15,679 bases of DNA from an uncultured Candidatus Saccharibacteria bacterium (GCA_964555095.1 CAZKRA010000013.1:1-15679), one strand, 5' to 3'. Positions 3 through 15,679 are shown, numbered from the stretch's first letter. Notes: generated by a model not told the origin, from the letters alone. Numbers and translations: made by a program.

Positions 3-338
3 CTCCGGAAATATTTAAAAACAAGAGATGATGATTCCGATGCTTTGTTTATAAATTACAGAGGTAAAAACCCTAAGACTCGCTTGTCAGTAAGAAGCTT
101 AGAAAGAATCGTTAAAAAACATGCTATTGCTGCGGGGCTTCCAACTAATACTTCTTGTCATACTTTAAGACACAGCTTCGCTACAGACCTTTTAAATAAA
201 GGCGCTGACCTTAGAGCCGTTCAAGAGTTTCTTGGACACAAGAATATTGTAACTACTCAAATATATACCCATGTAACTAAGCCTCATCTTAAAAAGACTC
301 ATCAGCAATTTCATGGAATTGCTGATGAAGATGAATAA
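3..338 (+). CDS. Tyrosine recombinase, XerC/XerD-like, C-terminal catalytic part (5' end outside window)
   Basis: The frame stays open back to base 3 (LRKYLKTRDDDSDALFINYRG...). HTLRHSFATDLL and LGHKNIVTTQIYTHV match the conserved HxxR box and the catalytic Tyr box of the Xer/phage-integrase family. TAA stop at 336-338. Confidence 0.9.
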   Translation, partial: LRKYLKTRDDDSDALFINYRGKNPKTRLSVRSLERIVKKHAIAAGLPTNTSCHTLRHSFATDLLNKGADLRAVQEFLGHKNIVTTQIYTHVTKPHLKKTHQQFHGIADEDE

Positions 339-12169: not shown

Positions 12170-15100
12170 TTATGGTGTAATTTCTTTCCAATCTGGAAGA
12201 GGCAAACTTCCTTTAATGAGTTTTTCTTCTTGATCTTTTCTGTTTAAGTTATCTTCTACTTCTATCTTAATCCATGTTTTAACTGCAGGAATTGTAGTTG
12301 ATGCAATTTCTTTTCCTTTTCCAAATTCAGAATAAATACCATCATCCTCTTTCACTCTCCAAGTTCTATTTTTAATCACTTCTCCTCCCTCTGACTCTTT
12401 TGAAAAGTCTTTAAAATACATTACTTCCTCTACTGAAGGTTCCCTTATTTCATTACACTCTTTCCAATTATTTTTAGTTAACGAACATTTAAAGCCCGCT
12501 TCAATTTCTTTTTTTACAGTAAGAGAGCGAGTAGCAACATCTGAGATATAAGAGTCTTCTACTTTTAATTTAATTTCATATTCTCCTGGTGAGGGTATAT
12601 CTTTTTCTTGGAGAGTACATTCTTTACTAAAACCAGCAACCTCCCCACAACTAAGAAGATTATAATTATCTTCTGATTTTTCTTTTATATACCAACTTGT
12701 TTTTTTAATATCATTATTGTTCTCAAGATTAGTAGAATCATTATCAGTAGAATTATTTACTAATTTATAAAAACAAGGATCTAAATCAGAAGTAGGTTGA
12801 TAAGTTATCCAATCGTCTTTTTCACACTTACCTCCTTTGCAATTAGAAGTATCACAAGAAATTTCTGCATTAGGAATATTTTCTTTTTTTATTGTTAAGT
12901 TATCACTTTTATCTTTTATTATATGAATTTTATTAGGTTTTATTTGAATTGCTTCCTTGTTTTTAGTATCAGTGGTTACTCCAACAAAAGAGTTTTTCTT
13001 TTCATTTTTAACTTCAAGAGAATAAGTTAAAGTCTTATCTCCCTTGTTTCCATATATTAAAGTATCGTTTTCAGAATTTAAATTTAAGATAGCTTCTCCA
13101 GTAGAATATATTTCAGTATCTAATTTAAATTGTCTTATATTGTCTTTAAATTCTTTCATTGGGTCTATTAAATTAACTGAAAAAGGTTTTTTTAAATCAG
13201 AAGTACTTACAGAAAAAGATTTATTTTCTTTTTTACCTTCTACTGTAAAGGTGTCTTTGGTTCCGTTATTCATTTTAATATTTTCCATCACATTTATTGA
13301 CTCTCCTGTAGGAACATAACTAGTATAGCTTCCGCTGGTATCTCCCTTAATAGTAGTTTTGTAATTTGCGGGAGGTAGAAGAAAAAATTGAGGGTTTTTA
13401 TCAGAAGAACGAGAAGGAATTGGTAAGGGTACAATATCAGAAATTTCATATTTATTATCAGCAATTGACAATATTTTTCCTTTTTCATTTTTAAATTCAA
13501 TTGTCCCTTCAGAATTAAAATATACCCCTGCTAATAGATAAAGGGCTCTACTTAAAGTTCCTCCTATTTCTCCTATTGTAGGTATATTAGTAGCTCTCTT
13601 TATTTTAGAATAAGGCATATATACTAATCTATCTAAAGGATTTTCTCCTTTCCATTCCCTCATATCTCTTCCACTTCTCTCCTGCCATTTTGAGAAATTT
13701 CCCTCTTTATCTATAAATATGTAACTATATAATAAATTTTTATTAGGGATAGAATCAGATGATTCAGCAAACAAAGTAGTCCCCATTCTAATAATATTAT
13801 TATCATAAAGATATATTTTTGTTCCATTAGTAGTCTCTTCAATACTATCTATAGTCACAGTATGATTGGTAATTCCTCCAAATTGACTTAACATATATAA
13901 CATACCATATTGAGGAGGATTTTTATTAAGATCGTTTTTAATATTATTTATAAATACTTGCGCTGCACTAGAACCGCTTCTACTTCCTGCTTTATTTGTT
14001 AACCAATAATTATCAGATTTAGACCAATGTTCAAGAACTATTCCTGCAAACGTTGACCTTGCATTCATAGCTTCTATGTGATCTAGTAACTTTATCCCTT
14101 TTTCATTACTATTTTCTGATAGACCAGCAATTCTATCAACATCCCTATCATAATTTTCTTTTTTATCATCTCCGTAATAAAATTGAAGTGTGCTTAAAGC
14201 CATTCCTGCACACCGGCCCGGAATATCTGATTGTAAATAATAAATAGGAAAATATAAAAGCGCTCCGGGGTTAGGTCCTAATCCCCAAGCACCACTGCAC
14301 ATACATACATCACAATTACCAAAACTTTCTTTATAGTGTCCATAATTTTGAGGATCGTTTATTGATTTATTTACACAATCACCATATGTGAGTTTCCCTC
14401 CCTCAGGATTATCAAAAGAAAATCCATAATTCCACTGTAACCATCCAGTGCACCTTTCCTCTGATTGTTCTTCCATTAAATAAGAACAATCAAATGAGCT
14501 TTCTTTTTTTGTAGTAAAAGATTTTTGTTCTCCTTCAACATCTTCTGCTTTTGCTTTAAAGTAATAAGTAGTATCATAGTCTACATTAATTTCGTGAGAA
14601 AAAGTTCCCGTATATTGTTTTTCTTCTAATGTAGTAATATTAGTAAGATAATTTGGATTAGTTCCCCACTTAAAATAAACATCTACTTTTTCTTCTTCTC
14701 CGAGGCTAGTTAGTTCTCCTTTTAAGGTAGCTTTATTTTTTTCTACTTTTGCTATTTTACCTCTTAAATTTTTAGTGCCATAATCTATTGAAGCAGAATA
14801 AGACTCTACTTGAGGAGACTCTTCGATTATATAATAATTTTCTTCAATTTTACCATCTTCTCCGTCTTCGCCTGGATTACTAGCAAAACCTCCCTTATTC
14901 CCTTCTCCTTTTTTTGTTATACAGTAATCCCCTACTAAATAATCTTTATTGCACCATCCTTCACCATTAGATCCATCTTCATTATAACCACTACCAGCAT
15001 CACCACCCTTCCCTCCCTTAGAAAGAGTACCTTTTGCATCTTCTCCGATAGCAAAACTATCAGAACGAAAAAGAGCAGTACTTCCATTATAAGTTCCACC

Positions 15101-15679
15101 TTTGCCTCCGGGGGCTCCACCTCCACCAGCATGCTCTGATTGCCATCCAAAACCTTCTTCCCAAATACCTCCGCCCCCACCAGCACCAGCAACTACTAAA
15201 AGATGTTTTGATCCATCTTTTTTAATTCCTATAATTTTTGTTTCTCCTCCACCCCCACCAGCTTCATCATCTCCTCCACTTCCTCCATTTGGCCATCCTC
15301 CTTTCCCAGGACCATTAGATGTAAGAGGTCCTTCTCCTCCCTCTCCTTCCCATAATTCTACTTCCTTAAAATCACTAAGATCTATCTTAGCCTCTACATA
15401 ACCTCCTGCTCCTCCATCTCCAGCTGATATTTCCCAATTATTATTTGCTCCTCCGCCCCCAGCTCCCCACATTTTAACATTAAGTCTATTATAAGTAGAA
15501 ACATCCTTATTTACTTTAGCTTCATCAGAATTAAAATAACAATTACTTGTATCATATTTACAATTTTGGCATGATAATGTACCTCCATCATAACCTAAGC
15601 TTGTACAGCTATTTCCGTCCATATTATTACCATCGCACTCTTCAGTATCTTCTACTATCCCATCTCCACAGAAGGAATC
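12170..15679 (-). CDS. Giant secreted/surface multidomain protein (5' end outside window, at least 1,169 codons visible)
   Basis: The frame is open from the window edge: 19 codons, DSFCGDGIVEDTEECDGNN, precede the ORF-track Met at 15622. Long uninterrupted ORF in an AT-rich genome. Many paired Cys residues and beta-rich modules. TAA stop at 12170-12172. Confidence 0.9.
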   Translation of the reverse strand, partial: DSFCGDGIVEDTEECDGNNMDGNSCTSLGYDGGTLSCQNCKYDTSNCYFNSDEAKVNKDVSTYNRLNVKMWGAGGGGANNNWEISAGDGGAGGYVEAKIDLSDFKEVELWEGEGGEGPLTSNGPGKGGWPNGGSGGDDEAGGGGGETKIIGIKKDGSKHLLVVAGAGGGGGIWEEGFGWQSEHAGGGGAPGGKGGTYNGSTALFRSDSFAIGEDAKGTLSKGGKGGDAGSGYNEDGSNGEGWCNKDYLVGDYCITKKGEGNKGGFASNPGEDGEDGKIEENYYIIEESPQVESYSASIDYGTKNLRGKIAKVEKNKATLKGELTSLGEEEKVDVYFKWGTNPNYLTNITTLEEKQYTGTFSHEINVDYDTTYYFKAKAEDVEGEQKSFTTKKESSFDCSYLMEEQSEERCTGWLQWNYGFSFDNPEGGKLTYGDCVNKSINDPQNYGHYKESFGNCDVCMCSGAWGLGPNPGALLYFPIYYLQSDIPGRCAGMALSTLQFYYGDDKKENYDRDVDRIAGLSENSNEKGIKLLDHIEAMNARSTFAGIVLEHWSKSDNYWLTNKAGSRSGSSAAQVFINNIKNDLNKNPPQYGMLYMLSQFGGITNHTVTIDSIEETTNGTKIYLYDNNIIRMGTTLFAESSDSIPNKNLLYSYIFIDKEGNFSKWQERSGRDMREWKGENPLDRLVYMPYSKIKRATNIPTIGEIGGTLSRALYLLAGVYFNSEGTIEFKNEKGKILSIADNKYEISDIVPLPIPSRSSDKNPQFFLLPPANYKTTIKGDTSGSYTSYVPTGESINVMENIKMNNGTKDTFTVEGKKENKSFSVSTSDLKKPFSVNLIDPMKEFKDNIRQFKLDTEIYSTGEAILNLNSENDTLIYGNKGDKTLTYSLEVKNEKKNSFVGVTTDTKNKEAIQIKPNKIHIIKDKSDNLTIKKENIPNAEISCDTSNCKGGKCEKDDWITYQPTSDLDPCFYKLVNNSTDNDSTNLENNNDIKKTSWYIKEKSEDNYNLLSCGEVAGFSKECTLQEKDIPSPGEYEIKLKVEDSYISDVATRSLTVKKEIEAGFKCSLTKNNWKECNEIREPSVEEVMYFKDFSKESEGGEVIKNRTWRVKEDDGIYSEFGKGKEIASTTIPAVKTWIKIEVEDNLNRKDQEEKLIKGSLPLPDWKEITP
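12212..12865 (-). other. Domain: two tandem PKD-like modules
   Basis: Module 1: ISCDTSNC...WITYQP...TSWYIKEKSEDN...PGEYEIKLKVEDSYISDVATRSLTV. Module 2: AGFKCSLTKNNWKEC...VMYFKDFSKESEGGEVIKNRTWRV...TWIKIEVEDNLNRKD. Confidence 0.5.
13796..14233 (-). other. Domain: putative papain-fold (C39-like) cysteine peptidase core
   Basis: Q464-x6-C471 in LQSDIPGRCAGMALSTLQFYYG (Cys codon 14210-14212). H587 in GGITNHTVTID (His codon 13862-13864). D607/N608 in IYLYDNN. Order and spacing follow the Gln/Cys/His/Asp(Asn) pattern of the papain clan. Confidence 0.45.
14507..14809 (-). other. Domain: FN3/Ig-like beta-sandwich
   Basis: ATLKGELTSLGEEEKVDVYFKWGTNPNYL...GTFSHEINVDYDTTYYFKAKAEDVEGEQKSFTT, an alternating beta pattern with the typical TxYYF(K/R)A motif. 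Confidence 0.5.
14843..15493 (-). other. Domain: glycine-rich domain (Pfam Gly_rich PF12810 / ALK-LTK GlyR-like)
   Basis: Periodic beta-strand-plus-polyGly blocks: NVKMWGAGGGG, GDGGAGGYVEAKI, ELWEGEGGEG, GGSGG, GGGGGETKI, LLVVAGAGGGGG, AGGGGAPGGKGG, KGGKGGDAGSG. Confidence 0.55.
15536..15679 (-). other. Domain: cysteine-rich repeat of the CGDGxxxxxEECDxxN type (Myxococcus cysteine-rich repeat / DUF4215-like)
   Basis: FCGDGIVEDTEECDGNNMDGNSCTSLGYDGGTLSCQNCKYDTSNC. Confidence 0.65.

Follow-up and report, generated by a model that had tools for sequence, protein, structure and literature searches.

The stretch of DNA analysed here (hereafter the window) comprises 15,679 nucleotides from an uncultured bacterium and ends within a giant gene that encodes a putative modular surface protein. 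The minus-strand frame 12173-15679 is free of stop codons up to the window edge and is closed by a TAA at 12170-12172; because it runs off the edge at 15679, the gene is partial in the window (1169 codons, the 3' 85%). In a search of 5.8 billion proteins, we found the full-length protein, P0001 (1377 amino acids), whose residues 209-1377 are identical to the product of the window open reading frame. These observations confirm a preliminary description of the locus, which had reported a single large mosaic reading frame still open at the window edge. Residues are numbered according to P0001 throughout (a residue of the window product has its P0001 number minus 208). The gene is genuine, native, intact and modular, and its features are listed below.

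12170..15679, minus strand: partial coding sequence (residues 209-1377 and the stop codon), translated without an internal stop and identical to P0001
15536..15679, minus strand: CGDG...EECD module with six cysteines (Cys), of the DUF4215/myxo_disulf_rpt type (residues 209-256), from its motif and homologous copies
14954..15478, minus strand: ALK/LTK-type glycine-rich domain (residues 276-450) with nine glycine (Gly)-rich motifs and 31% Gly, from PF12810
14504..14806, minus strand: FN3-like beta-sandwich spacer (residues ~500-600), from BLASTP matches to tandem repeats
13004..14491, minus strand: conserved cassette of ~500 amino acids (residues 605-1100), a single unit common to 44 protein clusters
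14276..14491, minus strand: Cys-rich N-terminal sub-domain of the cassette (residues 605-676) with 6 Cys, from alignment
13592..14275, minus strand: alpha+beta core with a putative triad (residues 677-904) and the motifs G-x-C-x-G-M, H-T-V and I-Y-x-Y-D-x-N, from alignments and a structural model
14210..14212, minus strand: codon of Cys698, the putative nucleophile, from alignments
13862..13864, minus strand: codon of histidine (His) 814, the putative general base, from alignments
13802..13804, minus strand: codon of aspartate (Asp) 834, the putative third triad residue, from alignments
12869..13591, minus strand: beta-sandwich region after the core (residues 905-1145), conserved to about residue 1100, from the model and conservation
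12518..12868, minus strand: C-terminal module 1 (residues 1146-1262) with 6 Cys, weakly similar to module 2
12173..12517, minus strand: C-terminal module 2 (residues 1263-1377) with 2 Cys, weakly similar to module 1
L001 9908-10000: hydrophobic leader of 31 codons, in frame and open, directly before the called ATG of the giant gene

Judged from its genes, the host is a bacterium of the candidate phyla radiation (CPR, or Patescibacteria) that is Parcubacteria/Paceibacteria-like and has a GC content of ~29%. The PyrG protein encoded in the window is 64-69% identical to those of metagenome-assembled genomes (MAGs) of Parcubacteria, Paceibacterota and Staskawiczbacteria. Relatives of P0001 were found neither among the GTDB species representatives nor in the viral contigs searched.

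We analyzed the distribution of the central part of the protein by an exhaustive HMMER search with residues 600-1145 over 1.84 billion cluster representatives. This yielded 44 related proteins, of which 26 scored E<=1e-10, and nearly all full-length matches span query residues ~6-500 as a single block. Because the relatives align in this way, the "8-Cys knot", the "papain core" and the "300 residues of beta sequence" that had been listed as successive modules are parts of one rare cassette, which by these alignments is a single conserved unit. The relatives are distant (23-36% identity, the closest only 36%), and a word-indexed search with the cassette alignment gave only 2 matches. Named sources include Altiarchaeota and Dehalococcoidia MAGs and JGI metagenomes; the Cys-His-Asp cassette family is patchily shared with Altiarchaeota and Chloroflexi surface proteins.

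The full-length relatives are proteins of 800-2400 amino acids, most of which have an N-terminal signal peptide and many a C-terminal hydrophobic anchor. Their partner domains include Laminin_G_3, TSP_3, beta-helix/NosD, dockerin, and rhodanese plus thioredoxin, as well as PASTA, BACON, PKD, TIG, CBM96 and Big. These modular surface proteins (P0013-P0057, from Altiarchaeota, Dehalococcoidia and JGI metagenomes) therefore resemble P0001 in the cassette itself and in its binding-type partners, whereas they lack the glycine-rich domain, use other partner domains and in many cases have the C-terminal anchor that is absent here. A Gly-rich region was detected in none of the 44 relatives, the maximum Gly fraction being 0.19 versus 0.33 in P0001. 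By this comparison the combination of glycine-rich domain and cassette is unique among the 44 relatives drawn from 1.84 billion representatives, and since no curated family covers the whole architecture either, the earlier statement that it is undescribed holds. The genomic context of P0057, the sole relative whose context was inspected, was uninformative.

The Cys-rich sub-domain at the N-terminus of the cassette contains the invariant residues G627, N632, L638 and F661, but its Cys count varies from 2 to 14 in the relatives, and only one Cys column is near-universal. With 6 Cys here, such a variable count and membership of the cassette, an independent 8-Cys knot module was rejected. The beta-sandwich region that follows the core has invariant residues including P908, G942, G987, Y993, D1017 and K1039. 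In the AlphaFold model described below, its strands span model residues 327-543, with a block-mean predicted local distance difference test score (pLDDT) mostly of 66-93 from model residue 381 on and 36-71 before it. The beta-rich nature of this region, as first described, is thus borne out by the model, whereas its separation is not, as it is conserved together with the core. D1017 (13253-13255), K1039 (13187-13189) and N1086 (13046-13048) are invariant or nearly so and are reminiscent of an intramolecular isopeptide triad.

Multiple alignment of the cores revealed C698, H814 and D834 without exception in the aligned relatives (28/28 and 21/21); Asn836 is conserved in 27 of 28. The invariant positions include G696-x-C698-x-G700, H814 and Y831-x-Y833-D834-x-N836 (28-sequence alignment, A2 and A3), and the cassette is nearly free of Cys after C698. 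Using alignment A2, we built an AlphaFold2 model of the cassette (residues 600-1145; mean pLDDT 66.9, predicted template modelling score 0.55); a single-sequence AlphaFold prediction of the same residues was discarded (pLDDT 31). In the model, C698 is located at the N-terminus of helix 99-110 (model numbering), strand 215-224 begins with H814, and D834 comes right after strand 228-234, with more strands following. This predicted placement fits a papain-like layout.

Searches for a known family with this layout gave little. Pfam and NCBIfam returned no match for 18 cassette members, and the weak Pfam matches among 21 cores were to Amidase_6 (E=0.042) and Peptidase_C39_2 (PF13529, E=0.13), in one member each; we take both families to belong to clan CA. 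Sequence and profile searches of PDB, with P0001 in full, the cassette and its core, the glycine-rich domain and the C-terminus as queries, returned nothing or chance matches such as FlgE, a kinase and FtsZ, and hhalign of the core against papain gave 0.14%. Foldseek searches of PDB with the cassette model found nothing at E<=1e-3; the few matches with a probability of at least 0.15 included staphopain (0.25) and IdeS/Mac-1 (0.15). Literature searches on BtaeB, a weak Foldseek match, yielded nothing about its fold. Clan CD enzymes (gingipain, clostripain and MARTX CPD) were also considered and were ruled out by their residue order, in which His precedes Cys.

The core shares several features with clan CA enzymes such as C39_2, staphopain (C47), IdeS (C66) and CHAP/NlpC-P60: the order Cys, His, Asp; a Cys that the moderately confident model puts at the start of a helix, with His and Asp placed on or beside successive strands; the motifs G-x-C-x-G, H-x-V-V and Y-D-x-N; and spacings of 116 residues from Cys to His and 20 from His to Asp. 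It differs from them in lacking a significant profile or fold match (the two Pfam E-values above are the best, and Foldseek probabilities for the proteases are <=0.25) and a conserved oxyanion glutamine (Gln), and in joining a Cys-rich N-terminal sub-domain and obligatory C-terminal beta-sandwiches to the core in one unit of ~500 residues. Because no family match is significant, we infer a clan-CA-like thiol enzyme rather than membership of the C39 or papain family. Of the papain/C39 core proposed at first, the invariant residues and the papain-like placement in the model remain, while the predicted PF13529 and PF03412 matches were not obtained for the window protein.

The glycine-rich domain matches PF12810 (ALK_LTK_GRD) with 33.0 and 34.8 bits (E=8e-8 and 2e-8), above the gathering score of 24.5, and the match covers positions 12-198 of the 243 in the profile. 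Its reversed sequence, five global shuffles and four block shuffles (20-residue blocks) gave no Pfam match at E<=10. As these ten controls were negative, the match depends on the order of the sequence and not on Gly composition, and a compositional artefact was ruled out; the PF12810 assignment made in the preliminary description is therefore upheld. The nine Gly-rich motifs alternate with hydrophobic strand-like segments.

The ALK/LTK domain consists of a polyglycine-II helix lattice on a TNF-like sandwich. The likeness of the bacterial domain to it lies in the above-threshold profile match and in its nine Gly-rich motifs (~31% Gly), a number comparable to the 10-14 polyproline II (PPII) helices of Caenorhabditis elegans and human ALK (bioRxiv 10.1101/2023.11.25.568672). 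Natural glycine-rich PPII-bundle domains are few (bioRxiv 10.1101/2023.11.25.568672). In contrast to ALK and LTK, the domain occurs here in a bacterial protein without kinase, MAM or LDLa context, and ~45 C-terminal positions of the PF12810 profile are unmatched. No direct sequence match to ALK/LTK chains in PDB was obtained with P0001 or with the domain itself. A word-indexed homologue search with the domain returned no matches, probably having been swamped by Gly-rich words.

In the prokaryotic world, the nearest functional analogy for a lattice domain at the cell surface is offered by phage tail-fibre tips. The tip with which the phage proteins Pam3 gp24 and S16 gp38 bind their receptors is built from a TNF-like plus glycine-rich domain, which resembles the ligand-binding domain of ALK (PMC9608196). 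By this analogy, we infer that the glycine-rich domain might bind a ligand on another cell or on a polymer surface. It differs from the phage proteins in being internal to a cellular protein rather than the tip of a trimeric fibre. No sequence similarity was detected in phage records and viral contigs, and tblastn searches of phages and plasmids with the core and the glycine-rich domain gave no match. The glycine-rich domain (14849-15496) has a marginal match to phrog_11583 (E=2e-4, 19 bits), a profile of 2796 positions and unknown function; Gly-rich domains similar to this one may occur in giant phage proteins.

The CGDG...EECD module, 49 residues long, has 90% identical copies, several in each protein, in P0002, P0003 and P0009, and copies at 43-53% identity in P0011 and P0012. 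P0002, P0003 and P0009 match P0001 nowhere outside this module: the domains of P0002 and P0009 are only of the Fib_succ_major type or unrelated, and P0003 has in addition a domain of unknown kind. Such an identity in proteins that are otherwise unmatched suggests that the module has been shuffled recently within the same or a close genome. It is similar to DUF4215/myxo_disulf_rpt repeats in its CGDG-x5-EECD spacing, its six Cys per 49 residues and its character of a shuffled extracellular module. It differs from them in that it is present in a single copy rather than in a tandem array and scores under both curated cut-offs (DUF4215, PF13948: E=0.025, 15.3 bits versus 27; TIGR02232: E=0.12, 12.2 bits versus 20.8). 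The repeat noted earlier is thus recognizable by its motif as one module, whereas the PF13948 match expected for it stays below threshold.

The FN3-like spacer (residues 500-600) had no direct Pfam match. However, BLASTP revealed similarity (E=1e-8 to 1e-11) to the tandem repeats of P0004-P0010, and the homologous repeats of P0007 are assigned to Pur_ac_phosph_N/fn3/PhoD_N by Pfam. An FN3-like nature of this segment is thus supported by transitive homology, although the significant fn3 match that had been anticipated was not found. The two C-terminal modules contain Cys residues and strand-like patterns and match each other only at E=0.065. As residues 1139-1377 gave neither a Pfam match at E<=10 nor a PDB match, the description of these modules as PKD-like could not be confirmed. 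No C-terminal hydrophobic anchor was found in the giant protein.

At the other end of the protein, the 208 residues of P0001 that lie outside the window contain 12 Cys within the first 72 residues and then a beta-rich stretch, for which a profile scan gave weak FN3-like or PUD hints only. A signal peptide and more modules had been expected in this part; the additional residues were found, but the called N-terminus, MVSACGD, has no signal peptide. Directly before the called ATG, we observed the open, in-frame leader of 31 codons, which reads ETIIKILSNNRQYLLFFSYLIILFSIVVGAQ. It contains no ATG, GTG or TTG start; candidate ATT, ATC and ATA starts are located near its 5' end (L001 9914-9925). A hydrophobic open frame of this kind occurs in ~0.1% of intergenic-DNA shuffles and, across the locus, in 0.7% of all segments of 93 nt. 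The leader and start sequence is identical in the 3 contigs that cover the region, which come from two projects, and the junction ...VGAQM-VSA-C fits a lipobox pattern. The true product may therefore be exported, and possibly lipid-anchored, with translation starting at a non-canonical codon. Just upstream of the giant gene lies a gene for a 119-residue lipoprotein (L001 9467-9838; lipobox LVGC, no Pfam family), followed by a hairpin and T-run terminator (L001 9815-9838).

Considering all these features, we give about an even chance to the hypothesis that the giant protein is an exported, anchored adhesin combined with a thiol hydrolase, which serves contact with another cell or surface. The protein would be exported by means of the hydrophobic leader just upstream of the called ATG, with a start other than ATG, GTG or TTG, and would probably be anchored at the cell surface by its N-terminus. 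The glycine-rich, FN3-like and Cys-rich modules might then bind the surface of a partner cell or a polymer, where the cassette, as a papain-like (clan-CA-type) thiol hydrolase (protease or amidase), would cut peptide or amide bonds. A role as host-interaction effector or adhesin, which had been suggested for this gene before, is a reasonable hypothesis. The preliminary description was correct in its main lines and mistaken for several of the modules.

Several observations weigh against this hypothesis. The model is only moderately confident, and segments near the core have a pLDDT below 50, including model residues 86-96 just before the Cys. The window protein has a Gln 7 residues before C698, but this column is not conserved in the family, so that the family alignments contain no conserved oxyanion-hole Gln upstream of the Cys. 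The cassette has no significant match to a known peptidase family in Pfam, NCBIfam, PDB or Foldseek searches of PDB and BFVD. The binding role of the glycine-rich domain comes from analogy alone. Finally, no signal peptide is present in the product of the called start, and none of the three usual start codons occurs in the leader.

A more specific version of the adhesin-hydrolase hypothesis assumes an episymbiotic CPR bacterium whose lipid-anchored protein, initiated at ATT, ATC or ATA, would target a partner cell with its polyglycine-II domain and cut with an uncatalogued Cys-His-Asp hydrolase, as an adhesin with a blade. With all these parts taken together, we regard this version as possible but unlikely.

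Among the alternative explanations, a rather unlikely one is that the cassette joins rather than cuts, acting as a transglutaminase-like enzyme or acyl-transferase that would cross-link either its own protein or a partner to a surface polymer. Transglutaminases, N-acetyltransferases and papain-like hydrolases have in common a Cys-His-Asp triad whose Cys lies on a helix and whose His and Asp lie on neighbouring strands. The glycan- and wall-binding partner domains of relatives (CBM96, BACON, PASTA and Laminin_G_3) also favor a cross-linker, as does the failure of any peptidase family to match the cassette. On the other hand, Transglut_core or a related Pfam model was matched in none of 21 members, even at E<=10, and the weak matches that exist go to hydrolase families only. 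The Cys-to-His spacing is ~80-170 residues in papain-like peptidases and ~27-60 in transglutaminases and N-acetyltransferases; the value of 116 found here is nearer to the former.

A purely structural role of the cassette appears still more doubtful. The conserved Cys, His and Asp would then bind a metal or stabilise the fold, and the protein would be a structural adhesin or a surface-layer component without enzymatic activity. The lack of significant homology to any enzyme family and of a conserved oxyanion-hole residue, and the binding or spacer type of all flanking modules, are consistent with this view; moreover, Gly, Pro or Tyr occupies many of the other invariant positions of the cassette, which points to structural roles. 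However, a lone invariant free Cys in the Cys-free core of an extracellular, disulfide-rich protein would be unusual for a structural residue, and a metal site with the three ligands Cys, His and Asp usually includes one more ligand that is conserved, which is not apparent here. Both the motifs G-x-C-x-G, H-x-V-V and Y-D-x-N themselves and the places they take in the model agree with a papain-like pattern.

It is very unlikely that the gene is defective or its product unexported, either because a lost start codon has made it a recent pseudogene or because a cytoplasmic protein is translated from the internal ATG. The leader lacking ATG, GTG and TTG and the called product MVSACGD lacking a signal peptide might suggest this, and visual inspection of the 20 bases preceding the ATT/ATC/ATA candidates showed no Shine-Dalgarno motif. 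Yet the 4.1-kb frame is wholly intact and stop-free, the leader and start region is unchanged across the 3 contigs, and the lipobox-like VSA-C junction and the 37 Cys of P0001, located in extracellular-type modules, argue for export. ATT, ATC and ATA are permitted initiators in translation table 11.

That the mosaic is an assembly chimera of unrelated genes, a possibility raised in the preliminary description and favored by the unusual domain combination and by a GC bump of 0.38-0.44 across the glycine-rich region in the 5' part of the gene, is effectively excluded. Two ENA contigs of 68 kb and 17 kb, assembled independently, both encode P0001 in full and without a difference, and its residues 673-1377 and 1-260 are matched at 100% and 98%, respectively, by two contigs from JGI metagenomes. 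GC content at third codon positions is uniformly low (0.11-0.21) in each module, and the bump arises from the first two positions of Gly codons.

Shuffled giant surface proteins are already known to be common in uncultivated lineages, and PF12810 is catalogued. What is new here, as judged from sequence comparison, is a rare, uncatalogued cassette of ~500 residues with invariant Cys, His and Asp, the joining of this cassette to a glycine-rich domain in a CPR bacterium and, probably, a non-canonical start. CPR bacteria depend on other cells, and the molecules with which they hold or exploit their partners are largely unknown; the giant gene provides a concrete, testable candidate. If active, the cassette would represent a new thiol-hydrolase family, and the giant bacterial surface protein, with its glycine-rich domain of ALK type, might offer a tractable system for studying binding by a fold that is poorly understood outside animals and phages. 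If the cassette proves to be structural, the finding shrinks to one more shuffled surface protein.

The genes around the giant gene are housekeeping genes: uppP, a MATE transporter, FKBP, dinB, an S41 peptidase, L9, pyrG, L27 and uppS; hrcA-grpE-dnaK-dnaJ lies upstream. Additional features of the window are as follows.

11339-12169, minus strand: region of uppP (BacA), which lies 66 nt downstream of the giant gene
3-338, plus strand: C-terminal part of a tyrosine recombinase, cut by the window start (PF00589, E=5e-25)
8128-8463, 8480-8719 and 10954-11262, minus strand: small open reading frames of 111, 79 and 102 amino acids, with no Pfam family in a Pfam scan

No terminator-like site was found between the giant gene and uppP, and a promoter-like sequence (TTCAAA-17-TATAAT) is located at 12146-12118. 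As uppS lies at 1448-2140, both undecaprenyl-cycle genes are present in the window. The 102-residue reading frame (10954-11262) shares 26 nt with the beginning of the MATE gene. A reading frame of 67 amino acids at 8766-8969 (plus strand), opposite in strand to all its neighbours, has a precomputed match to Fe_hyd_SSU (PF02256), which is odd for a CPR genome. AT skew is positive (+0.18) at 9501-11000, over the MATE gene, and negative in the rest of the window; this flip is probably due to the composition of a membrane-protein gene.

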